Below, one piece after another: positions 2,525 through 54,234 of a stretch of 64,000 nucleotides of DNA (the stretch's first letter is position 1; the number at the start of each line of letters is the position of its first letter). The DNA is from Scenedesmus sp. PABB004 (Eukaryota), in assembly GCA_014905635.1 (NCBI GenBank), contig JABVCE010000011.1:310001-374000 (forward strand), read 5' to 3'. The notes below the pieces were generated by a model that saw only the letters and a list, made by a program, of their open reading frames with translations, was not told the origin of the DNA and searched no databases. The position numbers were made by a program, and so were the translations under genes.

Positions 2525-5500
2525 TCACTGCCGCTTCTTGGCCGCGCTGCCGCCGCCGCCGGCCGCCAGCGCGCCGCGCTGCCGCCGCGCGCGCTCCAGC
2601 GCCGGCCCGTGCGCCAGGTAGCCCTTGGGCGGCGGGCGGGGCGCGGGGAACGCGGCGCGCAGGCCGTGCTCCCACGCGAACGTCGACACTACGACGGCCG
2701 CCACGCCCGCCGCCAGCGCGGCGCGCAGGTGCAGCGGGATGGGCACGAGCCCGAAGCTGCGCGCGCAACGCGGCCGGCAGGCAGGCGCACGCGAGCACGC
2801 GTGAGCGCGCGGGGCAGCTCGGGGTGCCGAGCCGCTGCGTCGGCGCGCCGAGCCGCCGCGCCGGCGCGCCGCCGCACCTCTCGTTGAGGGGCGGGAACCA
2901 CTCGAGGACGAGCACGCCGAGGAAGGCGGCGCTGCCGCGCAGCGACTTGGCCATGCCCGCGTTGTCCGCGAGGCTGGTGTTGAAGGGGTGGCCGACGTAG
3001 TTCACTGCGCGGCGGCGGCGGCGGCATGGGGCGCGGCGGCGGCGGCGTGCGGCGCGCTGCCCGCGAGCAATCGACCAAACACCCACCTGCGAACGTGGTG
3101 AGCTGCATGGCCTGCTGCACCAGGTAGCACACGCTGTTGACCAGGTTTGGCGCAAAGTCGCTCTCGCTGCCCTGCGCCTCGGCCGGCGGCATCGCGCCCA
3201 GCGCGAGCCTGGCGCGGCGGCGCGCGGCGCGGGGCGCGGGGCAGCGCGCGGGGGCGCGCGTGTGAGGGCGCGCCGCGGGGGCTCGGCGCGCGGCGGGGCC
3301 TGCTCGCTCCCCGCCCGCCCGCCCCCGCCCCGCGCGCGCGCCGCCCCGCCTCCCCCGCCGGCCCGAATCCCGCGCCCGAGCGCCGCGGCCGCCGGCGCCG
3401 CCGCACCGGTACATTCCGACGAGCAGCGCGAGCTGCGCCGCAAACTGGCCGAGCAGGCTGGCGAAGAAGTACGCGCAGAAGATGGAGGGGTGCGGGCGCT
3501 CCGCGCTCAGCGCGGGCAGCGGCTGCGCGGCGCTGATGAAGTAAAACAGCCCCGCCGTCAGCAGCCCCGACAGCGTCGCCTGCGGGCGGTGGCGGTGCCG
3601 GTGCCGGTGGTGCGGCGGGCGGTGGGCGGCGGCAGCTGCCATGGCGGCGCGCGTGGGTGGGTGCGGCCCCTTCCCACCTGGGTGGGAACACACACCCACC
3701 CACACCCGCCCACCGACCCACCCACACCCGCCCACCCACACCCACCCACCCACCTGCGCGTCGCTGAGCTTGACGCCCTGCAGGTACATCACGCTCAGTG
3801 CATACGCGGTCGAGAGGCAGGAGAGGCCGAGGATCTTGAACATCTGCACCGTCGTCACGAGCGTGCAGCGCCCCTGGCCGAGCACGTCCAGCACCGGCGC
3901 GACGCTGCCCGCCTTGGCCGTGAACGGCGCCGCCATGCTCGCGTCGCCGGGCTTGACCATCGGCGGGCCGTCGGCGCCGCCGGCCGCCTCGGCGTCGAGG
4001 CGGTCGAGCATGTCGGCCATGCGCTGCACCGCGGGCGGCACGGGCCTGCCCGCCGCGCGGTACTGCTCGACCAGCGCGGCGCCGGGCGGCGGCTTGTCGC
4101 CTGGCGCGGCGCGGGGCGCGGGCGCGCGGGCAGCGCAGCGGGGGCGACGGAGTGTGGGTGCAGGCGGGCGGGGCAGGCGGGGCGCGCGCGGCCAGGCCCA
4201 GTGTGGGGCGCGGGCGCGGGCGGCCCCAGCACACGCGCGCACCCTTCTTGCCCTTGCCGGCGCCGGCGCCGCCGGGCCGCGGCGCGGCGAGCTCGCCCGG
4301 CCGGCCGCCGCGCGGCGCGGGCGCGGGCGCGGGCGCGGCGGGCGACGCGCCCGCGTGCGACGCGCCGCCGGCGCGGCCGCGCTGCTTGTCCTGCTTGTCG
4401 CCGGCGCGGTGCTTGCGCTGCGCCTGCTCCGCGAGCGCGCTCGGCGCGAGCAGCGCGACGCCGACGTGCGCCGCCTTGAGGCCGCCCACGTCGTTGGTGC
4501 CGTCGCCAACCATCAGCGTCGTCCACCCGCACGCGCGCAGCGCCTGCGCCGCGCACGGGGCAGAGTGGGGCGGGGCGTGGGTCGCGCGCGCTTTTCGTTT
4601 GGCAGCGACCGAGCTCGACTGAGGCCCCGAGCGAGCCCCAGCCGCGGCGGCGGCGGCGGCGGCGGCGGCGCCCAGAGCCGCGCGCCTGCAGCACCAGCTC
4701 CTTCTGCTCCGGGCTGACGCGCGCAAAGACCTGCACCAGGGGAATGACGCGCCGCCCGAGGCCCGCGCCCTCGACGTGCGCGAGCGCGTCGCCTGCGGCG
4801 GCGGCGGCGGCGGTGGCGGTGGTGGCGTGGCGGCGCGTCAGGCGTTCCGCGGCAGCCGCCAGCGCGCGCGCGGCGTGGCGCAGCGCCGCGCGGCCGCGGG
4901 CGCGGCGCAGCCGCGCACCCGTGAGGCAGAGGTCGTTCTCTGACGCCAGCAGCAGCAGCTCGTCCCAGTCGCGGCTGAAGGGCAGCCGCGTCGACTCGTC
5001 GGGGCTGAGCCACTCAAACTCGGCGTCCGCCGCGGCCGAGCCGGGCGTGTGGTGCGCGCCGGGGCCGTCGCCGGCGGCCTCCAGCCTGCGTGGACGTGGC
5101 GGCGGCAGGCCGGGCGTCGGCGCCGGGCGCCGCAGGCCCTGAACCAGTCGCAGGCCGCGCGCGCCAGCCCTCTGCGAGCCCCTCCCTGCGAGCCCCTCCC
5201 TGCGAGCCCCCGCCCGTGCGCGCGCCGCACTTGTGCTGCAGCACCAGCACCGGGCGCGTGACGATGCCGACCTGCCGCGCCGCGTGCGCCGCGGTGAGCG
5301 GCGCGTCGCCGGTGATCATGACCAGCATGTGGCTGCTCGCCGCGAGCGCGGCGAGGCTCGGCGCCGACTCGGGCTTCAGCGGGCACTGCGGCGGGCGGCG
5401 GGGCGGCGGCGGCGCGAGCGGCGTGGCGGTGAGCCGGGTGCGGCGGCGTGCGGCGCCTCGCGCGCAGACGGGCGCACGCGGCGCACGCGCGCGTTTGAAT

Positions 5501-16689: not shown

Positions 16690-18000
16690 TCACTCGTGCA
16701 GCGGGCAGCCGCGCGGCGGCGCCGCCGCCGCCGGCGCCCCCGCGAGCCGGTGCGCGCCCGTGGCGGTCGCGTACGCGGACAGCGCGGGCATGAAATCGCT
16801 GCCACCGGTGCCCCGCGCGCCCTCGCGCGCGGCAAACTGCGCGATGTACTGTGCTGCGAAACCCCTGTGCTGCGCCCGGAACGCCGCGAGCTCGCCCACC
16901 GCGGCGTCGTAGGCCTCGGTCACGCTCGCCGCCGCGAGGCGCCGCACCGCGCCGCGCACGCTCGGCCCCGCCTCGAGCGCGTCCAGGAACGCGCGGTGGG
17001 CGGGCGGCATGTGCGCCCGCATCGCGGCGAGGTAGGTGGACAGCCTGCGGGCGCCGCCCCCGCGGCGGCGGCGCGTCGCGGCGTGTCGCGGCTGGGCGCA
17101 TGGCGAGCGGGCGGCGGGGCGCTGCCGCAGCCTGGCGCGGCGGTGGTGGCGGCGGCGGGCCGCCGCCGCGGCTGGGCCCGGCCAGGCGCGGCGGCGGCGG
17201 CGGCGGCGCACCAGCCGCGCTCGTGCTCGATGCCGAGCGCCGCGTCGAGCGCGGGCACGACGCTGCTCTGCGCGCCCGTCTCGCCGTAGAGCTGCTGCGG
17301 CGCGCCGCGCCAGAGCCCGCCGTAGACCAGTCCCCTTGGCAGCTTGGGATTGGCCCGCCAGCCCGACATCGGCAGCCGCACGCGCGTGTAATACACATGC
17401 GGATCGCACCTGCGGGTGGGCGGCAGGCGGGTGGGCGGCAAGCGGGCGAGCCGCGCGCCGCCGCCGCGCGCCGCCGGTCAGCGCCGCGCGCACCGCTCGC
17501 CCATGCACGACAGCAGCGCCTGCATCGCCTGCAGCGCCGCGACGAGCTCGCCGAGCCGCGCCTCCATCGCCGGCGCGTCGCGCCGCTCCGCGGCGGCCTG
17601 CAGCGGCCGCAGCGCCGCGAGCGCGGGGGCGGCCGCCGCCTCGATCGTCACGTGCACGGCGCGGAACCACTCCTCGTCCAGGCCGCCCAGGAAGTTCTAG
17701 CGACCGCGCGCGCGGGGCGGCGCAGCGGGCTTGCATGACAGGGCAGAGGGCTTGCAGCGCGGCGCTGGCGGCGCGCGGCGGCTCGCGGGCGAGCGCGCCG
17801 CGCCGCGCACGTGCTGGCAGGCGAGGTTGCCGAGCGCGACCGGCGCGGCGGCGTCGAGGCGGCGCCAGTTCATCAGGTTGTACGTCGCGTACACGAGCAC
17901 AGGCGGCATGCCCAGCGCGGCCGACACGGCCGCCCAGGGCTGCGCGAGCCGCGCCGGCAGCGCGTCGGGCGGGGCCGGGCCGTCGCACCAGACGTGCGCC

Positions 18001-18039
<39 letters not shown>

Positions 18040-18853
18040 TGGCGGGCGGGGCGCCGGGCTGGCGGGCGGTCTGCGGGGGGGGGGGGGGCAGCGAGCCAGG
18101 GCGCGGCCCGCGCGGCCCGTGCACCGCGCCGATGGCCTCCCGCGCCTCACGTGGCAGAGGAAGGAGAGCACCATGTACGCCCGCCACAGCTCCGCGTCGC
18201 ATGAACACCACGCCCCCGCCGCGCCGTCGGCCGCCACCGCCCGCCCGCCGGCGGCGTAGCACGCGCCCGCCGGCGGCAGCAGCTGGGGCGCCGCCAGCGC
18301 GCCGTCCACGCCGAGCGCGGGCGCGGCCGCGTTGCCGGGCGGCAGCGACGACAGCGCTGGCAGCTCGCGCAGGTCAAACGGCGGCAGCGCCTCGAGCGCG
18401 CGCCGCAGCGTGCCGGGGCCTGGCGGCGGCGGCGGCGGCGTGCTCGTGAGCGAGCGAACGGGCGGCCGCATCGACGACGACTGGGTGACCAGGGTCACCC
18501 GGCCGTGGCCACCGCCGGCCGGGCCCGTGCGGGTGCTGCTCACTGCCCAGCGCCAGCTTGGGGATGGCGTCCAGCGCCTCCTCGTACGCGGCCAGGCCGG
18601 GCGGCAGCCTGCGCCGGCGCGACGCGGTTGGCGCGGCCGGCGGCGGCCGCGGCGGCAGCGGCAGCGGCAGCGGCGGGCGCTGGCGCGCGCACCGCAGCAG
18701 CGGGTCGTGCTCCGGCAAGAACCCGCGCTCGGCGGTGACGCCGTCGAACAGAACAGCAGCGCGGCGGGCTGCGGCGCGCCCGCGGCAGGCTGCGGCGCGG
18801 CGCGGCGCCGCGGGCCGCTGCCGCTGCGGCCGCGCCGCCGCCGCGGCGCGCAT
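16690..18853 (-). CDS. IDO: Indoleamine 2,3-dioxygenase family heme enzyme with Arg/Ala-rich putative organellar presequence, 7 exons
   Basis: GFLPEHDPL, AYMVLSFLCH, LGMPPVLVYATYNLMNW, FLGGLDEEWFRAVHVTIE, RLPMSGW, GETGAQSSVVPALD, MRAHMPPAHRAFL, FRAQH (proximal His), GTGGSDFM; ATG 18853, TGA 16692-16690. Confidence 0.93.
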
Positions 18854-19251
18854 GGCGCCCCGGAGCGACCGCGGCAGCGCCTGAGGCGACCAGGCGCAGC
18901 ACGTGGCTCCGGGACGGGCGCGGCCAGCCCGGGCTGCGGCGCGGCGCGGGGGTTGGCGGCGAGCGCTCTGCTGCTGTTGCTCCGGCCCGCGGCGGCGGCC
19001 GCGCAGGTCGATGATCTCCAACTCCGCTCCCGTGCTACACCCGCCGCGGCGGCGCCGCAGAGGTTGCCACCCAGGCCCTGCGCGATCCTCCTGGCTCCCG
19101 CCAGCGGCGGCGGTGCAGCGCGTGCCAAAGCCCCACGTGCGCGGCGCAGCCAACGGCGCCACCGGCCGATCGCAGGGCCCACTTTCTACACGCACGCCGC
19201 CGCGCCACGCGCCTCGCGGGCTCCGCCGCTCGCGAGGGCTCGACCGCTGAG

Positions 19252-19368
19252 GGCATCGCCTCAACCATCGCGCCTTTCCGTCTCTCAAGTTCGAAAGGCG
19301 CCGGAGTGCACCCAACCACCCCAGACGCCTTCCGCACTTGAGCGACGCAGGGCGCGACGGCCGGTGCC
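19252..19368. ncRNA. Long imperfect hairpin A (pre-miRNA-like)
   Basis: Arm 19265-19308 (ccatcgcgcctttccgtctctcaagttcgaaaggcgccggagtg) pairs with 19317-19360; loop cacccaac; several + strand A-C mismatches become G-U pairs on the - strand. Confidence 0.55.
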
Positions 19369-19676
19369 GCCGCGCTGCTGCAGATGGCGCAAAGCGCGGT
19401 GCACGCGGCCGCAGAGCGCCGACCCGCCGCGCCCGCGCGGGTGGCGCCGCAACGTCCGAGGCGCGCCACGCCGCTGCCGGCTCGGCGCGCGGGCGGCTCG
19501 GCGGCGCGGCGCCGCCGCGCGGAGGAGCAGCGACCGGGAGGCGCGCGGCCCCGCGCCAGGGCCCCTGCGTCGTCGACGGCTGCTGCGGCGGCCCCGCGCG
19601 CGCGACGGGCGGGAAGTAGGAATGCGACAGAGGCGGGCAACCTCGGCAGCGCGGCGCGGCGCGGCACCCGCTGCGG

Positions 19677-19842
19677 CCGCCGCCTCGGGGCAGCGCTGCA
19701 CGCAGCGCGGCAGCGCTGCGCGGGCGTCCAGGGCATCCGGGCCGCCCTGCTTGACGAGCGCGGACGACCCGGTGGTCGCCTGAGGCAGTCAAGGAGGTCG
19801 GCCCGGATGCCCACGTGCAGCGCTGCCGCCGCGAGGCGGCGG
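19677..19842. ncRNA. Long hairpin B (pre-miRNA-like)
   Basis: 19731-19755 (gggcatccgggccgccctgcttgac) is the reverse complement of 19788-19812 with 2 mismatches; an outer ggcagcgctgc(a/g)cg arm pairs with 19814-19829; inner cgacc/ggtcg stem. Confidence 0.55.
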
Positions 19843-20038
19843 GCGCAGCGGGCGCGCGCACGCGGCCGCCCTGCCCAGCGCGCGCGGCGCGCGCGAGCAG
19901 TGCGCGCAGCGGCCAGCAGCGAAGGCCAGCGGAGGCGGCCAGCGGGTGCGGGGGGCGGCGTCGGAGGCCGGCGGCGCCGCGCAGCAGCCCCCGGCGGCGG
20001 GCCTGCCCACGCGCAGCAGCGGGCGCAGCACGGCGCGC

Positions 20039-20145
20039 GCCAACCTGGCCGCCGTGCAGCCCTTGACGCTCGCGTCGTATGTGCCCTGGTGTATCCTGGG
20101 CACCTTTGACGCGAGCTCCAAGGGCTGCACGGCGCCAAGGTCGGC
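20039..20145. ncRNA. Long hairpin C (pre-miRNA-like)
   Basis: cgccgtgcagcccttg (16 bp perfect) + gctcgcgtc (9 bp) + gtgccc (6 bp) pair with gggcac...gacgcgagc..caagggctgcacggcg; about 45-bp stem. Confidence 0.65.
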
Positions 20146-20713
20146 TGCCAGCCCGGCAGCGCCTCGTGTGTGCGCACGCGCGCGCGCGGCCCGGCGACGG
20201 CGCCACCCGGCAACCACAGCCGCCGCTGCGGTGCTCGACGCGTGCGTGCGGCCGAGCGCATCGGCGCCGCAGCGCGCGTGCTGGCGCGGCCGCGCGGCCT
20301 CGCCGCGCGGCACGCGTCGCTGGCCGTGAGAGCGTCGCCAGCAGCGGCGGCGGCGGGGCAGCCGAGGCAGCCGAGGCAGTACAGGCGGCGCTGCCCGGCG
20401 GCGGGCTCTGCCTCACGCTCGCAGCGGGTGGGTGGAGAGCGCTGCGCGCGGCATTGGCGCGCTCACGCGGCCTCACTCTCACCCAGCACCTTCGCAGGCG
20501 CAGGCGCTGCGTGCGCACGCAGACAGCAAGGCCCAGACCTCTACGGCCCTGCTTCTCACGCCGGGCGGGCGTTGCGTCTTGGAGGGGGGGGGGGGGGTGC
20601 GGCTGCAGCCCGCGGCGGCGGCGCGCCCTGCGGCGCCTGCGGCTGGGGCGCGACGATCACACCCCGGCTCGCTCGCGCAGGAGACGGTCGGTCAGGTCGA
20701 CCCTGCGGGAGGG

Positions 20714-20876
20714 GCAGCCCTGGACGACCATCTCCGGCGCCCTCGGGGAGCTCCTGCAGCAGGCGCGCGTGGCCCTCCAGGCCTACCTGGCAGTTGCTGC
20801 CAGGCGGACCTCGAGGACCACGCGCACCTGGTCGGGGGAGCTCGCCGAGGTCGCCGGAGCGCTGCCCGAGGGCTGC
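20714..20876. ncRNA. Long hairpin D (pre-miRNA-like), about 62-nt arms
   Basis: 20732-20793 versus the reverse complement of 20797-20859 gives about 50 Watson-Crick pairs, loop TTG; closing stem gcagccct/agggctgc. Confidence 0.65.
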
Positions 20877-20933
20877 GCCGCCAGCGGGGGAGCGGCCAGC
20901 GCGCCTCTAGCTCGCGGCTCACCCGCGACGCCC

Positions 20934-21000
20934 GACGAAGGCGGGGAAGACCCAGAGGTGGCAGACCTCCTTCTCCGACCGCTGTGTCCTCCTCGCCGTC
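20934..21000. ncRNA. Imperfect hairpin E
   Basis: ggcggggaagacccagaggtggcaga pairs ungapped with tctccgaccgctgtgtcctcctcgcc at 20 of 26 positions. Confidence 0.4.
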
Positions 21001-21037
21001 TGCAAGCACAGGAAGAAAAAGCGCGCGCGTGACGCCC

Positions 21038-21166
21038 AGGCGCACGCCGACGCACCGTCGTGAGCCTCGCGCTTTGGCAAAGTGCGCGTCTCCGTGACCG
21101 GGCCACGGCGACGCGCACTCTGCCGCGCGCGGGGCGCACGAGCGCGTGTCGGGCTCGTGCGGGCCT
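21038..21166. ncRNA. Long hairpin F (pre-miRNA-like)
   Basis: ggcaaagtgcgcgtctccgtg (21076-21096) pairs with cacggcgacgcgcactctgcc (21104-21124); outer tcgtgagcctcgcgc with gcgcggggcgcacga; further outer ccgac/gtcgg and gcacg/cgtgc. Confidence 0.6.
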
Positions 21167-21367
21167 GAGCTGCGTGCCGCGCGTCGTGTGCCCGTCCCGC
21201 CTCGCTGCCGGCGCCGTTTTGAGGCCGGCAGGGGGGGGGGTCGTGGGTGCGGCCGCGCGCGGCGAGGCCGAGGCCGAGGGCCGCGGCAGGGCGGGCGCGG
21301 CCGGCCGGCTGCGGCGCGGTGCGGGGTTGGCGGCGCGCGCTCAGCTGCCGCTGCGGCTCGAGGCGGG

Positions 21368-21462
21368 TCGCGGCGGTCGCGGCGGCTCGCGGCGGCTCGC
21401 GGCGGCTCGCGGCGGCCGGGCGGTCGCGGCGGCTCGCGGCGGGTCGCGGCGGCTCGCGGCGG
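21368..21462. repeat. Minisatellite of about 10-nt unit (TCGCGGCGGC), about 9 imperfect copies
   Basis: Directly visible tandem tcgcggcggc units between the hairpin cluster and the Ubl-E2 stop codon. Confidence 0.8.
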
Positions 21463-21568
21463 TTGGGTGCAACTCTCCTGTTTCATGAGCAGCAGCCTGC
21501 AACAACCTGCCCTTGCCTGACAACAACGCCAGCAACGCAGCTGCCAAAGCCTCAAAGCCCCGCCGCGG

Positions 21569-22950
21569 TCAGCGCGGCCCCATCGCGTGCGCGGCCGTGT
21601 GCGCCGCCACGGCCGCCTTCCACGCGCGGTCGGCTGTGAGCGCGGGCTTGCGCAGCAGCATGTGCAGCGCGGCGAGCACGCACGCCACCGAGCGCATCTC
21701 GGTGCCCACCACAAAGCAGATCACGCCGCTGCGCTCGTCGACGTAGGGGTTGAGGATCGGCGTCACAAACTTTGCACACGGCTGCCGGCCCGGGAAGGCG
21801 TGGCTAAACATCAGGCGCACGTGCCACCAGCCCCCCGCATAGGGCGTGCCCTCGGGCCCGGCGAGCTGCCGGCGCGCGCGGCGGGGGACGCAGGTCAGAG
21901 CGGCGGCCGCGTCGGAGGCCAGAGCTGCGGCCTGCCCAGCGATGCGCTGTGCTGCGCGCGACGTGCACGTGCACGCGCGCGCGCGCGCGCGCCTGGACGT
22001 GCCACACCAGCGGGTCATCGGCGTCCGGCGCGGCGCTGATGCCAGGCATGGGGTGGCGCATGATGTGCCTGAACTGCTTGGCCAGCTGGGCCTCCGTGCT
22101 GGTGCCGATGCGCGGCGTGTCCGCGCCCGGCGCGGTCACCGGCTCACCGACGATGCGCGCGCCGCCGCCGCCGGCGGCGCCGCCCCTCTGGCGCTCCACG
22201 GCCTGAGCGGCGGCAGCGGCAGCGGCGCGGTGCTGCTCAGCTCTTGCAGGAGACTGCCCGCGACGCCAGCGGCTGCAGCGCCGCCCTGCCCGCGCGCTGC
22301 CGGCACCGCGCGCTGCCGGCCCCGCAAGCGGCGCGCGCGCCCGACCCCGTGTCACACCTGGACGGCGTCCAGGCCGGGCTTGAGCGCCAGCGGCTTGCCG
22401 TCGTGCGCGGAGTCCAGCTCCTTGCCAGCATATGCCAGCCTGACCTCAGCGGCGCAGGAGCCCATCGACCGCGCCACCTCGCGCCGCAGGTCGCCGCCGG
22501 TCGTGACGCCCGGCGTGACCTCGACGCGCAGCAGCTGGCCGGCCGCGGTCACCACGGTGAGCTCGCGCCGCAGCTCGGGCGCCGGCGCCGGCGCGGCGGC
22601 GCGGCGCCGCATCGCGTGCAGCAGCGGCGCCGTGCCGGGGCGGGGCGCGAAGGCCTCGCCGTCGCGCGCCGGCGCGAGCTCGTCCCTGCGTGCGCGAGCC
22701 GCACGTCGTCGGGCCGTGCACCGGTGCGGGCCGCCACCTCGGCCCGGATGTCGCCCACGGTGGACCCCGGCTGCAGCGGCACGCGCAGCACGGCGCCGTC
22801 CTGCGTCACGATGTCCACGTCCGTTTGCTGCGCGCGCAGCCGCACGGCGGGGGCGTGCCCGCGGGGCGCGGGGCGCAGCAGCGCAGCGGGTGCGGCGGCG
22901 GACGCGCGGCGCGGCGCCGGCAGCGCGGGGCGGCGCGCGGCCGCGAGCAT
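21569..22950 (-). CDS. Fusion protein: transit-peptide-like leader, two ubiquitin-like domains (second ends RQRGG), UBC/E2 domain; 3 exons; 1-nt frameshift at 22684-22686
   Basis: Ubl1 VDIVTQDGAVLRVPLQPGSTVGDIRAEVAARTGARPDDVRLAHAG; Ubl2 LTVVTAAGQLLRVEVTPGVTTGGDLRREVARSMGSCAAEVRLAYAGKEL; intron 22357..22203; E2 GISAAPDADDPLVWHVQ|LAGPEGTPYAGGWWHVRLMFSHAFP...KFVTPILNPYVDERSGVIC; GC-AG intron 21992..21866; TGA 21571-21569. Confidence 0.8.
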
Positions 22951-23122
22951 CGCGCTGGCGTGTTGGGGCGCGTGAGGGGGCGGCTGGGGCGGTTCGAGAG
23001 CTTTGGCGCGCGGGGGGCGCCGCGGCGGCGTGGCACAGCTCGGGAGCGGGACCGAGGTTCAGCGCGCGCCGCCGCATGACACTCCCCCGCGGCACGCCGC
23101 ATCCTGCCCCAGTCCGCCCCTC

Positions 23123-26100
23123 TCAGTGCCGGGCGGGCTTGGCCATCGCGCCGCCGCTCACGCGCGGGCTGCCCGCGGCCGAGCCGGGTCGGTCCGCCAG
23201 GCGCGACGCCGGCCGCGCGGCCGCGCCGCCGGCGCCGCCGCCGCCCGCCGCGCCGAAGCTCGCACGCTGCCCCGGCGCGCGCGGCGGGCTCGCCGGCGGC
23301 GCGCCGCCGCCCTCCGCCGCCGCGCCGTCGCCGGCGGGGTTCGCCGCGGCTGCGGGCGCGCGCCGCGCCGCGCCGAGCTCCACCTGCGCCGCGCGCGCTG
23401 CAAAGTTGAGCGACGACAGCGTCTCGCTCGCCGACGCGGGCTCGGGCGAGCAGCAGCAGACCAGCAGGACCTTGCTGCTGCCCGACAGGCTGTCGGCGAG
23501 CACCTGCACAGGTGCGCGCGGGTGTGCGGGTGCGGGCATGAGGGAGGCCGCCGCCGCGCGGCGTCCGCGCCGGTGCCGCCGCCGCGCCACTTGCACAGCC
23601 CCCGGGCGCGCACGCGCGCCTGCGTGAGCTTGCTGTTGCGGAAGGGCACGTGCGCGCCGCGGCGCTGCAGCGCGGCGATAACGTCGCCGAGCGCGGAGAG
23701 GCTGCGGTTGATGGCCTGCGCCTCTCGCAGCTGCTGCCCGGCGACCTCGCTCCTGTCCACGCGCTCCGAGCCCGCCAGGTCCACCAGGTGCAGCAGCGAG
23801 CTGAACGGCGCGCCGCCCTCGCGCCGCCCGCAGACGCGCACGCTGAGCACGGCGTGCGAGCGGCTGCTGTTGGCGTTGAGCGCGGTCGCCGCGGTCGCCC
23901 GCGCGCGCGCGCCCTCCCGCAGCACCGCCTGCACCTCCCCGGCGTCGCGCACGGGCCGCCAGAGCAGGCCGGGCACGCTGCGGGGCGCGGGCGGGTGTGG
24001 CGGCCCCGCGCGCGGCGTCAGGCGGCCGAGGGGGTGCAGGGCGCGCGGGCGCAGGCGGGCGCGCCCGGCGCGACGCCGCACCGGTCCATGCCGGCCGGCA
24101 GCTCGCCCGCGGGGAGGCCCGACACGTCGAGCGTGTGCGCGGCCGCGGCGGCCGCGGCGGCGGCGGCCGCGCCGCCGCCGCCACCCGCGGCGCTGGCCGC
24201 GGCGGCCATGGCCAGCAGGTCCCGCACCGCCTCGTTGTAGATTTCCAGCATCGCCACCTGGGGTGGGGCGGCAGGAGCAGCGGCGGCGGCGGCGGCGGTG
24301 GAAGGTGGAGGGCCAGGCTCCGCGCGCGCCAGCCCCCGCGAGCCGCAGCACGGCCACGCGGCGGTGCAGGACGGCCGCGCGCGCAGCCGCGGCTGCGGGC
24401 CCACCGACCTGGAACGACCAGCCCCCGTTCGCCTCGTCCGCGGCGATCGCAAACAGCTCCTGCGACCGCGCGGCGGGCCGCAGCGCGCCGCGCGCGCGGC
24501 GGGCGTTCAGCACTCAGCAGAGGCCGCGCCTGCGCGCGCGCAGCCCCGCGTGCGTGCGCCCGTCGGTTGCGTGCCGGACCTGCAGCGCGCGCGCGTTGAC
24601 GCCGAGCGCGTCCGGTGGGCCGTCCATGGTGAAGGTCTTGCCGCTCCCCGTCTGGCCGTACGCGATGATGGCGGCGTTGAAGCCGTCGGCGCACGAGCGC
24701 ACGAGCGGCGACACCTCCTCGTACACCTGCGGCGGGCACAGCGGCCGGGCGGGGGCAGAGGCAGGGGCGGCCGTCGGGCGCGTCCGGCTGCGCACAGCGC
24801 GGCGGCTGCAGCTGCCGGCCGCCGCGCGCGTCGTCGGCCCGCGCGGCGCCGTGCAGGTCGCGCCTGCGCCTGGCCCGCCTCGGGCGGGAAGACGGCGTCA
24901 AATTCAAACTCCCGGCTCCGCGCCGTCGACGCGTCGCAGACCGCGACGAGGCCCTCGAGCGGGAAGCTCACGGCGCTCGCGGCGCAGCCGCCGGGCGGCG
25001 CGCGCCCGCGCGGCGACGCCGGCGCCGGCGCCGCGAGCGGCGGCCGCACGCGGCACATCACGCGGATGTTCCCCCGCAGCACCTGTGACGTGGCAGCGGT
25101 GGCACGAGCACCCTCAGGCCTCAGCGCACACGCGCAGCCTGGCCCGGCGCAGCGCCGTCGCGTTTCCCCGAGATGCAGGCCCCGCGGCCAGGGCGCCGCG
25201 CCTGCAGCTGCTCGTGCAGTCGCCGCCGCACGCCGCGCTCGCGCATGAACCGCTCCTCCCACTCCGCCGCGGCGGCCGCCGACGCGGCCGCCGCGGCGGT
25301 TGACGCGGCCGCCGCGGCGCGCAGGCCCTCGAGCGGCGCGAGCTGCGCCGCGAGCCGGTCGCGCTCCTCCGCCGCGTGCGCGGCCTCCGCGGCGCCGCGC
25401 TCGCGCTCGCCCGCCGCGGCCGCGAGCTCGGCGCGCAGCGCCGCCAGCTCGCCGCCGCGCTGCGCGAGCTGCTCCTGCAGCAGCGCCCGCTCCGCGGCGA
25501 CCTTGTCCAGCTCGCTGCTGCTCGCGTCGCCCCAGATGCGCGCCTGCGCGCGCGCCTCCTCCAGCGCCTGCGCGTCGCATGCAACATGTCGCCACGCCGC
25601 ACGCCGCGTCACAGCTCAGCCGCCGTCGCAGGCGGCGCCGCCACCGCCGCCGCACCTGGCGCACGGCCGCGCCCTCGCGCTGCAGGCCCTCCGCGGCGGC
25701 CGCCGCGTCGGCGAGCTGCCGCTCGAGCTCATACTTGACTCGCCAGGCCTCCAGGTTCTCACCCTTCAGCGCCTCCACCTCACCCCTCAGCGCCTCGGCC
25801 TCGCCCGCCGCCTGCGCCTGCGCCGCCTGGCGAGCGTGCGCGTGCGCGGGCGGCGGCGCGGCGCGGCGGCGGCGGCAACGCTGGTCGGCGACGCGCGGCC
25901 GCGAGCTGCCGGCGCCGGCGCGCAAGAGCAGCGGCGGCGCACTCGGGCTGCTCCATGCCCCCCCCCCCTACGCACGCAAGCGCACCAGGGCCGCCTGGAC
26001 GCGGGCCTCCGCGTCGTACAGCCGCTCGTTGGCCTCCGCGAGCGCCGCGCCCGCCGCCTCCTGCACGCGCGCGGCGCCGCCGTCGCCGTCGCCGCTGTCG

Positions 26101-26938
26101 CCGTCGGCAACATAGTACCTGCACCGCAGGCGGCCGGCGCGCGCGAGCTCGGACCGCGCAGCCGTGGAGGAGGGCGCGGCTGGCTGAGACGGTGTGGAGC
26201 GCTGCGCCGGCGCGCGCGCCTGTAATAGTGCTTCAGGCTGGCGCGCCACTTGGCCTGGCCGCCGCCGCTGCTGCCGCCGCCGCCGGCGCCTGCCAGCGGC
26301 GCTGCCAGCGCCGCGCCGCCGCTCCGCCGCGCTGCCGGCGAGCCCGCCTCCGGCCCGGCCGCCTCCGCCGGGCTGGCGCGCCCGCTGGTGGGGCTGCCGT
26401 CGCCGGCGGGTGCCGCTGCGCGAGCGCCGCCGCCGTCGGGCGCCGCCGCCGCCCTGGCCGCCAGCGACGCGCGCGCGAGCCAGCCCGGCACGCCGGCAGG
26501 CCACTCGCGCCCCGCCACATCGCCCCGCCCCCGCTCGGCATCGCCCAGGCTGCTCAGCAGCTCCCGGTTGGCCGGCGGCAGCGCCGCCGCGCCTGCCGCG
26601 GCGAGCGCGGGCGAGGCAGGCGTGGCGCGCGGCGGCGCCAGCGCGGTCAAGCGCCGTCGGCGACCGCCCGCACCGTGCAGCGCGGGGATGAGCTGCTGCT
26701 TGGCCCGGGCGTCCTGCACCTCGCGCTCGTAGAGCCGGCCCTCCAGGGACGCAATCCTGGCGAGCAGCCTGCAGCGCGCGGCCGCGCGCCGGTTGCCGCC
26801 AATTTTGTGGCGCGTGCGACAGCGAGGGCAGCAGCGCAGGCGGACGCGCGGCGACGGGCCGCACCTGTCCACCATCTCGCCGCTGCCGGCCGCGCCTGCG
26901 ACCGCCGCCGGGCGGGCGAACACGCCCGCCTCCGCCAT
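23123..26938 (-). CDS. Kinesin-14 family motor (coiled coil followed by C-terminal motor domain), multi-exon
   Basis: [23 protein letters not shown] (kinesin-14 neck), [71 protein letters not shown]. The start codon is less certain than the motor. Confidence 0.93.
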
Positions 26939-29203: not shown

Positions 29204-29243
<40 letters not shown>

Positions 29244-31429
29244 AGGGCGGCCGCCGGGGTCGGCGGGGCCGACGGCGAGCGCGATCGCGTCCCCGCCGCT
29301 GCCGCCGCCACCGCCGCCGCCGCCGCCGCCGCTGCTGAAGCTGAACAGGCGCCAGGGCGCGCGCGACCCCGGCGCGCCGCCGCCGCCGCCGCGCCACGTG
29401 AAGCCCGCGCCGGGCCGCCAGCTGCCATAGGCTGGCTGGTCCATCGCATCAAACTCTTGCAGGACGCGGCTGTCGTCCAGCACGTTTGCGTCCGCCTGCT
29501 TGACCGCGACGGGCAGCCCCGCCGCCGCCGGCGCCGGCGCCGGAGGCGGCCGCGGCGGCGCCGGCGGCGGCGGCGCGCCATCGGCGCTGCTGCCCAGCGG
29601 CGTGCGCCGCCGCGCGCGCGCGCCGCCGCCGCCGCCGTCGCCGCGCCCGCTCCAGAGCATCTCGGCGAGGCAGGAGCGCAGCGGGTGCATGTAGAGCAGC
29701 AGGCTCGCGATCAGGGAGACCAGGAACCCGCCGCGCAGGCTCCAGCTCAGCGCCCGCGCGAGCACGGGGCCGACGCGCGGCTCGAGCTCGCGCGTGCTGA
29801 ACGAGGCGAGCACGTTGACCTGCGTGGCGCGCCGGGGCGCGCAGGGCGGCGACGTCTCGGCCGTCAGCCGCCGCCCGCGGCACGCGGCGAACCGAGGTTT
29901 CGCTGCGCGGAGCGCCTCCCGCCGCGCGTCCCCGCGCGCGCCGCGCCTGCACGTCGTCGCCAAACGCGAGCGCCGCGCCGAGGCTGAGCGTGAGGTAGGT
30001 CCCAAACGCGAGGCACAGCGCGGCACCGATCGCCGCCTTCATGCGCGCCGGCGAGTAGGGCACCAGCAGCGGCATGAGCGGGTGGACGCTCTGGTGCGCC
30101 ACCTGGGCGGCGGCGGCGCGGCGCCACGTGGCGGCGTCAGGTGTCGGCGCCAGCGGCAGGGGCAGCGTCGCTGCCGCGCCAGGGGCCCGGCAGCGTGACG
30201 ACGGCCAGCGCGGCGCAGCCGCCTGCGCCGCGCTCACGTAGCAGGCGATGAGCACCGGCATCACGGCGGTGAGCGCCTCAAGCTGCGCGCCGCGCGTCGG
30301 CCCCAGCATGGCCCAGTTGGGCGCGAGGGGCAGCGCCGCATCGCCGCGCGCGAGCGCGGCCGCGCCGAGGCCCGCGCACGCCGCCGCGAGCAGCGCGGTC
30401 GCGGCGACGCCGACGACGTTGAGCGGCGCGAGGCGGTCCATCGACCTGCGCGTGCGCACGGGTTCAGGGTTTAGGGTCGACGGGCAGGCCGGCCGGGCGG
30501 GCGGCGCGAGGTGTGGCGGCAGGGCGTCGGCGGGCCCGGCGCGGCGCTGCGCGGCGCGCGGGCGTCGCGCGGCGCGCGCACCGCAGCAGCAGCAGCGGCG
30601 CGCAGACCACGGCCGCGACCGCAATGACCACGAGGCGCGGGTCGGCGCCGCCAGCGGCGGGGCCGAACAGCTCGCAGAGCAGCCCGTCGCACGCGTCGGC
30701 GCCGCTGCCGACGAGGATGTCACGCACGATGACCTGGCGGCGGCGGCGGCGGGCGGGCGGGCGGGCGCGGCGGCGGGCGGGCGGGCGGGCGGGCGGGCCG
30801 GCTCGGGGCGGGGCGGCGGTGGACGCGGCGCTGCAGGCGTGCGGCGCGCGGCGGCGCCCCACGCGGCGCCCCCGGCTGCCGCCGCCCCGTCCGCGCGCCC
30901 GTCTGCGCGCCCCGTCCGCGCGCGCAGCGGCGCACCAGGTACACCACACCGAAGCCGGCGCAGAAGGCCAGCACCGCGAGCTGCAGCGCCTTGGCGCCGC
31001 GCCAGCCCAGGCACGCCGTGGCGAGCTCGCTGTACGTCGCCGCGCCGCGCGCGGCCGAGCCGTCCACGAGCACCGCGAGGGTGTAGTAGGTCAGCCCTGG
31101 CGGCGGCGCGGGGCCCAAGGGTCGGCGCGCGGGCGGCTGCGGCTGGGCGCGCGGCCGCCCGACGCGCCGCGCGGGCGCGGGCGCGGGCGCGCACCTGCGA
31201 CGCCCGCGAGCATCGCGGTGCCCGCGATCGCGCCCGTCGCGACGAAGGCGCGGGGAATGGCCATCATGCCCGCGCCGATGATGACCTTGGCCAGGTTGGC
31301 CACCGCGCGGCGCGCCGACGCCGCCGCCGCGGCGGCCTCCGCCGCGCTCGGCGGAGGCGGGAAGAGCAGCGGCGTGTGCAGCTCGCTGCCGTCGTCGCTG
31401 CCGTCGCTGACGCCGCCGTCGCTCGCCAT
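28836..31429 (-). CDS. Amino-acid transporter, AAAP/AVT6 (SLC38-like) family, multi-exon
   Basis: ANLAKVIIGAGMMAIPRAF, TYSEL, PLLLLR|SMDRL, VLIACY|VAHQSVHP, FGDDVQ|VNVL, VPDIFSALSLIGDVAST..AFIVPG; N-terminal acidic dileucine ELHTPLL suggests vacuolar targeting. Confidence 0.9.
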
Positions 31430-44889: not shown

Positions 44890-45902
44890 GGCCGGTGGGG
44901 CGGCGGTGCGCGGCGACCAGCGAGTCGCGTGCGCGCAGCCGGCCAGACGGCCGCCCAGGTCTCCGCCAGAGCGCACGCTCTGCCGCGCACTTGACTGCCG
45001 CACCGCGCGGGCGGCGCGTGCCGGCCGACGTATATATGGCGCCATGCGCGTCGGCGGGGCGCTCTGCCCCGCCGCAGCACTTGGCACCCCAGCATTGCGC
45101 AGCCGCGGCGTTCCGCGTGGCCAGCCATGCAACGCATGCCGCGTTTGTGGTTGTGGGGCGTTCCGTCCCATCAGCACTGAGCAGGTGCACCCAGGGGTGC
45201 CCTGATCGCTTCGCAGACCTGGCGCCTGGCCTTCTGCGCGGTGTGGCGCCGCGCGCCGGCCGCGCGGTCGGTCTCGCCGCGGACTGCCGGCGCACTGCCC
45301 CCCCCCCCCCCGCCCAAACCAAACCCGTAGCGCATGCTCGCAAACGTGGTGTCTGTAGCGCATGCGTGCGAGCGATGTGACGTGTTTGTGTTGTGTTCTT
45401 CTTCAGAAAACAACACTCGTTGGCGCGCCAGCTTTGCGCGCCGCCGCTCCACGCCGTCGTGGGGCTGCCGCTCACCACCACCCAGGGTGTTACGTACTGA
45501 GCTTTGCCCCGGTCTCGTCTCGTGTTGCATCATCTCGTGTTGCATTGTGGCGTGCTGCTCGTGCTGCCTCAGAAAAAGAAGAAAAGAAGAAAGCAAGGCT
45601 GCTCACAACAACACACCGGTGTGTTGTTGTGGTACCACGCCCGCGCGACGCACGCTCTGATCAAAGAAGGCAGCAGGACGGATGGGGACGGAGGGGGACT
45701 CGGAACGCCGCGCTCGCCCGCGAACAACAACGCGCGCCGCCGCCGCGCCTAGAATCGCGGCGGCGGCGCGCCCCCGGCGAGCGCGGCCATGCATGGGGAT
45801 GATGATGATGATGACGATGTGTGTGCGGCGCATCAACGCGCGCTCTAACCTGTGCAGCGCCCTCGGGAGATCGGCTGGAAGGTGCCCTGGACGTGGCGCC
45901 CT

Positions 45903-51630: not shown

Positions 51631-54234
<2,604 letters not shown>

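Follow-up and report, generated by a model that had tools for sequence, protein, structure and literature searches.

Results

A gene-free gap between the Ubl-E2 and IDO genes

We analyzed a 64-kb stretch of a Scenedesmus sp. PABB004 contig (the window), which belongs to an extreme genome (assembly GCA_014905635.1), reported at 78.5% GC, 39.8 Mb and 1.31% repeats (PMC12571836). Within the window, a cluster of fold-back hairpins occupies a gene-free gap of about 2 kb between two minus-strand genes, Ubl-E2 and IDO (Table 1). The initial annotation saw no credible gene in this gap, the largest non-coding-like stretch of the window, and our searches agree: Pfam recognized no real family in ORFs of the gap, returning one weak match under its cut-off. 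A tRNA scan gave nothing at threshold. Rfam gave nothing at its gathering threshold, and the matches below it (MIR898 at 43.2 bits against 75; mir-431 and mir-28 at 29 bits against 70 and 64) are generic hairpin matches.

The IDO start codon is probably the ATG at 18855-18853. The public gene model joins kinesin, E2 and IDO into one gene across the gap, which it reads as an intron plus one 45-nt exon bordered by AG and GT. This fused model is probably an artefact, because the IDO proteins of relatives stand alone at 485-502 aa. Transcript ends cannot be placed, because the TGTAA poly(A) signal is so rare here, with three occurrences in 64 kb and none of its complement.

Table 1. Features of the gap and its borders, in window coordinates. 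z compares the fold with dinucleotide shuffles and is given as plus/minus strand.
Feature	Position	Strand	Length (nt)	z	Remarks
IDO, probable start and first coding part	18733..18855	-			downstream neighbor of the gap
Hairpin A	19252..19368		117	-6.3/-7.8	loop 19309-19316; 68% GC
Weak short hairpin	19359..19410			-2.8/-4.3	
Hairpin B, compound fold-back	19659..19857				inner hairpin 19731-19812; outer arms 19659-19702/19814-19857
Hairpin C	20039..20145			-13.3/-13.1	
Weak short hairpin	20224..20274			-2.5/-3.7	
Hairpin D	20714..20876		163	-9.1/-12.2	loop 20794-20796
Exon of the fused public model	20828..20872	-	45		residues 1059-1073 map here; within 3' arm of D
Hairpin E	20934..21000		67	-2.7/-2.7	2 of 200 shuffles equally good
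Hairpin F	21038..21166		129	-5.6/-7.7	loop 21097-21103
Weak hairpin	21175..21265			-4.0/-2.2	stabler on plus
Tandem repeat, 10-nt unit	21349..21462				about 11.8 copies; immediately past E2 stop
Ubl-E2, last exon and stop codon	21569..21865	-			UQ_con 4.6e-12 (Pfam); 100% identical HSP 21865-21617; upstream neighbor of the gap

Five strong hairpins and a marginal one

We compared the minimum free energy of each hairpin as RNA with that of 200 dinucleotide shuffles per strand. The main hairpins lie where the initial annotation had placed them, and five of them (A, B, C, D, and F) fold far better than chance, with none of 200 shuffles equally good and z values from -5.6 to -13.3. Hairpin B, folded as 19677-19842, reached z -11.1 on plus and -8.6 on minus, and the minimum free energy of A was -60.6 on plus and -78.2 on minus. 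Hairpin E is marginal in this sequence and folds better in a variant strain. The annotation had also listed four weaker fold-backs. Three of these are detectable as weak hairpins; the fourth, at 20489-20585, is within chance (z -1.0/-0.05; 34 and 91 of 200 shuffles equally good). With DNA parameters, the folds of A, B, C, D, and F are strong too (z -3.7 to -11.5, the latter for B).

Each of A-F is 67-199 nt long and nearly all inverted repeat: one arm is an adjacent reverse-complement copy of the other, the spacer is 3-9 nt, and the arm pairs are 75-83% complementary. None is young. A repeat search aligned the inner arms of B (19731-19769/19774-19812; 39 nt, 79% complementary) and the arms of C (20039-20089/20095-20145; 51 nt, 82%, 5-nt spacer). 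The arms of A are complementary at 38 of 51 aligned positions and those of F at 48 of 58. As RNA, the six would form imperfect double-stranded stems of 24-83 bp.

The hairpins are clustered and single-copy in the window

We scanned the whole stretch in 2130 windows of 120 nt, 64 of which (starting at 19200-21100) represent the gap. A composition-corrected z of -4 or lower on either strand was found in 10/64 gap windows versus 2/2066 elsewhere (Fisher p 2e-14), and both outside windows (3601 and 29221) are low-complexity palindromes, one of (GGGT)n/(ACCC)n and the other of (GGC)n/(GCC)n. When segments of about 950 nt were folded and compared with 20 shuffles each, the two halves of the gap gave z values of -10.5 and -9.1 on minus and -9.2 and -5.4 on plus, versus -3.8, -0.05, and -0.3 for three controls. 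The earlier impression that no other part of the window has a comparable hairpin density is thus borne out. The other non-coding-like stretches of the window (1.1-2.1 kb) and its introns hold no comparable hairpins, and hence a uniform mutational process does not explain the cluster. The palindromes are not an assembly artefact either, because short metagenome contigs from two runs (X1 and X2), which match the window at 98-99% identity, cross the apex of E, and one of them (X2) also crosses the apex of F.

As the initial annotation had noted, no hairpin is a copy of another. Compared among themselves, A-F show no similarity, no common loop or stem motif, and no shared termini, and no arm has a second copy in the 64-kb window.

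Three hairpins carry codon-like periodicity

The GC content of hairpins C, D, and E varies with codon phase (0.89/0.53/0.64, p 0.004; 0.63/0.93/0.70, p 0.0008; and 0.50/0.55/0.96, p 0.0015, respectively), a pattern found in 0/6 intron-like gaps. Arm 1 of C and arm 1 of D have codon scores of 0.47 and 0.42 and so reach the mean of true exons (0.46 +/- 0.20). Neither A, F, nor B taken as a whole has exon-like periodicity. This feature of C, D, and E is new here, and because of it the three may derive from fragments of coding sequence that were copied in inverted orientation.

The periodic segments fall in three different frames, and the frame of the 45-nt model exon scores 0.07 only. Searches for parent genes in the window (blastn, tblastx, 21-mer) returned GC-rich low-complexity matches only, and word-indexed protein searches with peptides of D and C returned nothing at E<=10. 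An exhaustive protein search with D gave one match (E 3e-4), which we rejected because it is to a repeated motif within an unrelated protein of 876 aa.

Mismatches show no strand preference

The initial annotation had reported that transition mismatches in A, D, and F are mostly A-C on plus and G-U on minus, and had taken this to favor a minus-strand transcript modestly. Hairpins A and D do lean this way (wobble-type mismatches 6 v 2 and 5 v 2, minus versus plus), but F does not (2 v 3). The strand argument fails on the wider count: there are 21 such mismatches on plus versus 22 on minus across nine hairpins, with 6 on plus versus 1 on minus in 21175..21265, and the excess within A-F (19 minus v 12 plus) is not significant. 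Among all 89 arm mismatches, G-U makes up about a quarter on either strand, and 46 are transversions. This is the pattern of neutral decay. The minus strand folds slightly better than the plus strand in both halves of the gap (-671.2 v -662.0 and -640.6 v -635.9 kcal/mol).

Strain variation

The near-identical metagenome contigs cover 717 nt of the gap. A hand count found 6 variants in 327 nt of hairpin and 2 in 390 nt of spacer, so the hairpins are not visibly conserved between strains. Of the six strain variants in D and E, five make the fold of the variant strain more stable, which is not significant; with its three natural variants, E improves from -40.0 to -54.4 on the minus strand. A search for the locus in relatives returned one distant 1-kb metagenome contig only.

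Discussion

Candidate substrates of a Dicer-like enzyme

We favor a reading in which the hairpins arose by inverted duplication and, if transcribed, would be Dicer substrates; we put its probability at roughly 40%. A local inverted duplication would have made each element by placing a reverse-complement copy of one arm beside the other, 3-9 nt away. Five strong elements and a marginal one would have arisen independently between the tandem Ubl-E2 and IDO genes, and no fewer than three (C, D, and E) from sequence with the codon periodicity of this genome. Should the gap be transcribed, the simplest source would be (i) an extended 3' end of E2, (ii) read-through from E2, which would cover the gap because it has a minus-strand gene on either side, or (iii) a separate non-coding RNA. 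Each element would then fold into an imperfect stem of the type that green-algal Dicer-like enzymes cut, and the outcome could be small RNAs derived from the hairpins (miRNA-like or siRNA), cutting of the host transcript itself, or a combination of the two. Transcription, processing by Dicer, and any target are inferred; a search of the remaining 61 kb of the window gave no complementary target for the hairpins.

Annotation criteria for plant miRNAs ask for a fold-back of at most about 300 nt that contains a duplex of 20-24 nt in which mismatches and asymmetric bulges are few. All six hairpins contain 21-nt windows with at most five unpaired positions per side, from 22/47 to 125/143 such windows per hairpin and strand, and the best (in C, D, and F) have 1+1 unpaired positions. 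Inverted repeats of this kind, five or six of them strong, hairpin-forming, and mutually unrelated, could feed a small-RNA pathway. A polycistronic miRNA precursor, as the initial annotation proposed, is one candidate interpretation. In its favor are the lack of a credible gene in the gap, the dissimilarity of the hairpins, the absence of target-site duplications, and the room for 21-nt duplexes; the mismatch counts and the sub-threshold Rfam matches give it no support.

Plant polycistronic precursors with non-homologous miRNAs are recognized from sequenced small RNAs and usually contain two or three hairpins. Like them, the gap brings several unrelated hairpins into close proximity, perhaps within a single transcript; unlike them, it has five or six, and their common transcript is putative. 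MIR genes can also arise by inverted duplication of target-gene fragments. The codon-like periodicity of C, D, and E is expected of copies of coding sequence, although here neither the window nor protein databases yielded a parent gene. In the pairing of adjacent reverse-complement arms across a tiny spacer, the locus resembles such MIR genes. It also resembles in this the hairpins or miRNAs attributed to replication template switching (PMC10710096, PMC8794818). In Chlamydomonas reinhardtii, DCL3-dependent hairpin precursors of miRNAs and siRNAs occur in introns, UTRs, and non-coding RNAs. DCL3 is reported to produce the majority of miRNAs there, using hairpins within introns and UTRs of coding RNAs, and to cut mRNAs that contain hairpins as well, nine of which had no associated small RNAs (PMC4817775). 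Our locus resembles that system in that long imperfect fold-backs, with stems long enough for 21-nt duplexes, lie next to coding genes, or in their non-coding parts, in a chlorophycean alga. It differs in having five or six unrelated hairpins in 2 kb and in belonging to an alga of a different order (Sphaeropleales).

Alternative explanations

The main rival, somewhat less probable than the reading above, is that the hairpins are neutral DNA palindromes. Template switching, or inverted-duplication mutations of another type, would have produced them where a compact genome has its one long stretch free of constraint, and they would now be decaying, with no role as RNA. A one-step origin of hairpins by template switching has been proposed (PMC10710096, PMC8794818). 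The balanced wobble-type mismatches, the lack of a G-U excess, transversions as common as transitions, arm complementarity of 75-83% throughout, and hairpins no less variable than their spacers are all in keeping with this, and the periodicity of C, D, and E points to copied coding fragments rather than to sequence shaped as RNA. However, palindromes of this type are missing from the introns and from the remaining non-coding-like stretches of the window, and no arm pair exceeds 83% complementarity, which is unexpected if the events were spread over time. The stabilizing tendency of the strain variants in D and E also runs against neutrality, without reaching significance.

A cis-acting barrier seems unlikely. 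In this reading the stems would act, either as RNA or as DNA cruciforms, to halt or cleave E2 read-through ahead of the IDO promoter, with small RNAs arising at most as by-products. The cluster lies exactly between two same-strand genes, the hairpins are strong with DNA parameters, and DCL3 of Chlamydomonas is reported to cleave hairpin-bearing mRNAs, some of them with no associated small RNAs (PMC4817775). Yet other intergenic stretches of the window have no such hairpins, those of the gap have neither a loop nor a stem motif in common, and the barrier is pure inference.

Slightly less likely still are remnants of fold-back transposons or MITEs of several families, inserted in one gap. The elements have the shape of many MITEs, being short and almost wholly inverted repeat. 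However, no flanking direct repeat (3-10 nt, within 3 nt of the ends) accompanies five of the six hairpins, and the sixth, B, has only a trivial GCG. The mutual dissimilarity of the six, the lack of shared termini and of second arm copies in 64 kb, and the 1.31% of repeats reported for the genome (PMC12571836) likewise count against transposons.

We give similarly low odds to a dedicated small-RNA locus, a hairpin 'fragment trap' of inverted, snap-back-like copies of coding fragments from other genes or from invaders, with Dicer products that would silence the parents in trans. If true, the gap would correspond, in a unicellular alga, to those small-RNA clusters in which fragments of targets are stored, and would hold several miRNA-like genes caught at an early stage.

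The least probable alternative is that the gap contains real protein-coding exons, as in the public model: the periodicity of C, D, and E, the exon-like scores of two arms, and the AG and GT borders speak for it, but against it stand the absence of a real Pfam family and of homologues for D or C peptides, the three different frames, the score of the model exon's own frame, and the stand-alone IDO proteins of relatives.

Significance

Our literature search returned no paper on small-RNA biology in the Scenedesmaceae, a family with uses in algal biotechnology. Hairpins that are clustered, unrelated, and in part derived from coding sequence would offer a ready test case for the birth of hairpin RNA genes by template switching or inverted duplication, and would also show whether Dicer cleavage regulates tandem neighbor genes. 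Hairpins with codon-like periodicity can, in addition, mislead gene finders, since the public annotation fuses three genes here and places an exon inside hairpin D.

Hairpins in the gap between the Ubl-E2 and IDO genes

We computed RNA folding z-scores for the hairpins in the ~2 kb gap between the minus-strand Ubl-E2 (E2) and IDO genes, using 200 dinucleotide-preserving shuffles on each strand. The hairpins are real: A, B, C, D and F fold at z -5.6 to -13.3 and remain outliers under DNA energy parameters (z -3.7 to -11.5), under which hairpin E is no outlier (z -1.4). An outer arm pair extends hairpin B to 19659-19857, and each of hairpins A-F can accommodate 21-nt duplexes that stay inside the customary limits on mismatches. 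Three of the four further hairpins that the initial annotation listed as weaker hold at z -2.2 to -4.3, whereas the fourth, 20489-20585, folds at chance level (z -1.0 / -0.05). Homopolymers of 15 G (20584-20598) and 10 G (21231-21240) on the plus strand, read as C on the minus strand, lie between the hairpins.

Features of the gap and its neighbours (G-U, mismatches that pair as G-U on the given strand)
Feature	Position	Strand	z (plus / minus)	G-U (plus / minus)	Arm complementarity
Hairpin A	19252-19368		-6.3 / -7.8	2 / 6	75%
Hairpin B	19677-19842		-11.1 / -8.6		79% (inner arms)
Hairpin C	20039-20145		-13.3 / -13.1		82%
Hairpin D	20714-20876		-9.1 / -12.2	2 / 5	78%
Hairpin E	20934-21000		-2.7 / -2.7		76%
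Hairpin F	21038-21166		-5.6 / -7.7	3 / 2	83%
Weaker hairpin	21175-21265			6 / 1	
IDO segments (Pfam)	16690-18146	minus			
UQ_con (ubiquitin-conjugating) segment (Pfam)	stop at 21569	minus			
Kinesin segment (Pfam)	23123-24967	minus			
45-nt exon of public model, within 3' arm of hairpin D	20872-20828	minus			

The density of folding was scanned in 2130 windows of 120 nt (step 30, both strands), with the effect of composition regressed out. A robust z<=-4 was found for 10 of the 64 windows starting at 19200-21100 versus 2 of the 2066 others (Fisher p 2e-14), and both exceptions are low-complexity palindromes, one of (GGGT)n/(ACCC)n at 3601 and one of (GGC)n/(GCC)n at 29221. When folded as ~950-nt pieces with 20 shuffles each, the two halves of the gap had z-scores of -10.5 and -9.1 on the minus strand and -9.2 and -5.4 on the plus strand, versus -3.8 and -0.05 for two non-coding-like control stretches and -0.3 for a genic one. 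In a map of codon usage, trained on the seven exon segments that match best, no non-coding-like stretch of the window is larger than the gap; the others (1.1-2.1 kb) are without such hairpins. The initial annotation was therefore correct that no comparable density occurs elsewhere in the window.

Other structured or repetitive sites were also seen. A fairly clean palindrome at 45707-45790, GCGCTCGCC...GGCGAGCGC flanking a GC-rich core, lies in another non-coding-like stretch, and the non-coding-like 44900-45880 (981 nt) folds at z -3.8. Very stable folds at 29215-29345 and 29520-29655 (-111 and -114 kcal/mol) place (GGC)n opposite (GCC)n; they are low-complexity and match many sites in the window. 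A (TG)n microsatellite of ~155 nt (53419-53574) appears as zero-folding-energy windows on the minus strand.

Possible origin and role of the fold-backs

On the minus strand, the E2 stop (21569) is followed by the gap and then by the probable IDO start (18855). We propose, at a probability of about 0.4, that the fold-backs come from inverted duplication and are Dicer substrates when transcribed. Because the gap separates two same-strand genes, the stems would be exposed in any E2 transcript that reads through or has a long 3' end. In Chlamydomonas, introns and UTRs of coding RNAs are reported to supply the hairpins for most DCL3-made miRNAs, and DCL3 is described as also cleaving mRNAs with hairpins directly; for nine of these mRNAs no small RNAs were detectable (PMC4817775). 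Our estimate follows from this precedent and from the same-strand gap. The demonstrated steps reach structure and the later steps are a proposal; the candidate miRNA cluster of the initial annotation is neither shown nor excluded. No paper on Scenedesmaceae small RNAs was found in the literature searched.

Neutral palindromes with no RNA role are the next reading, which we consider rather unlikely. We aligned each arm to its partner's reverse complement and typed every mismatch across nine hairpins. G-U accounts for about one quarter of the 89 mismatches on either strand (21 on plus versus 22 on minus; 12 versus 19 for A-F only, not significant), and transversions account for 46 more. This share matches unselected substitution with a transition:transversion ratio near 1, and the mismatches therefore signal neither RNA-pairing selection nor strand. 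The minus-strand transcript modestly favoured in the initial annotation retains its G-U lean in A and D, but not in F or in the nine-hairpin total; whole-region energies are better on the minus strand by just 9 and 5 kcal/mol. Arm complementarity is narrow-ranged, with no young near-perfect pair among A-F, which fits an origin in a burst, fast loss of perfect palindromes, or a level held by selection.

Near-identical contigs from DNA (metagenome) runs span 717 nt of the gap at low depths (2.4-4.3). By hand count, strain variants number 6 in 327 nt of hairpin versus 2 in 390 nt of spacer, and thus the hairpins are not visibly conserved. Five of the six hairpin variants stabilise the fold when put into the window sequence (not significant), and strain variants shift hairpin E on the minus strand from -40.0 to -54.4 kcal/mol. 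An assembly artefact was rejected: short contigs from runs X1 and X2, 98-99% identical to the window, cross the apex of E, and that of F is crossed by the X2 contig as well. A cis-acting barrier separating the two genes is an improbable account of the gap.

Transposon remnants are slightly less probable again. As initially annotated, none of the six hairpins is a copy of another; nor does any have a second copy in the 64-kb window. They are not visibly MITEs: a flanking direct repeat of 3-10 nt is absent at five of the six, and the sixth has only GCG. Rfam gave no family at threshold, the best being a generic long-hairpin match to MIR898 (43 bits versus a gathering score of 75), and a tRNA scan found none.

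Codon-like periodicity and the public gene model

Hairpins C, D and E have a GC of 0.89-0.96 in one codon phase and 0.50-0.70 in the other two (chi-square p 0.004, 0.0008 and 0.0015, respectively), the same pattern as true exons (rich-phase GC 0.92-0.95). Such periodicity is absent from the gap spacers (all p>0.03) and from intron-like gaps (0 of 6 with p<0.05). Arm 1 of B is also periodic (0.94/0.65/0.84) but not in phase with its partner arm. True exons have a mean codon score of 0.46 +/- 0.20 per codon; arm 1 of C (ANLAAVQPLTLASYVPW) at 0.47 and arm 1 of D (QPWTTISGALGELLQQARVALQAYLA) at 0.42, both in the plus-strand reading, score at real-exon level. The simplest reading is that these arms arose by inverted copying of coding sequence. 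Such copying is a proposed birth route of plant MIR genes. Inverted coding copies would also be compatible with template switching, as proposed in PMC10710096 and PMC8794818. No parent gene was found within the window, a word-indexed protein search for a parent of D or C gave none at E<=10, and the sole match of D in an exhaustive protein search was to a repeated motif of an unrelated protein; with such short peptides, all of these negatives are weak.

That the hairpins are real exons is the least likely reading. With an IDO exon as protein query we retrieved KIN14Q, a 1561-aa protein of Scenedesmus sp. PABB004 with kinesin, IDO and UQ_con domains, whose model bridges the gap by the 45-nt exon between introns 21610-20873 and 20827-18881, both with GT-AG ends. 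The codon-like periodicity probably explains the gene finder's exon call inside hairpin D. By tblastn against the window, 7 of 14 KIN14Q segments are at least 97% identical, five of them 100%, which identifies the source of the window as this alga or a strain nearly identical to it. The model fuses the kinesin, Ubl-E2 and IDO genes (16693-26938, minus). Since IDO proteins of relatives stand alone (485-502 aa), this fusion is probably a mis-annotation. GC is ~80% along the whole window; the genome is reported at 39.8 Mb, 78.5% GC, 1.31% repeats and 7,092 genes (PMC12571836).

Two minor observations concern 3' ends. TGTAA, the chlorophycean poly(A) signal, has just 3 occurrences in the 64 kb and its complement TTACA has 0, so this alga may use a different signal. 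A 10-nt tandem repeat, CGCGGCGGCT (21349-21462, ~11.8 copies, 87% matches), lies ~100 nt past the E2 stop codon, presumably within the 3' UTR.
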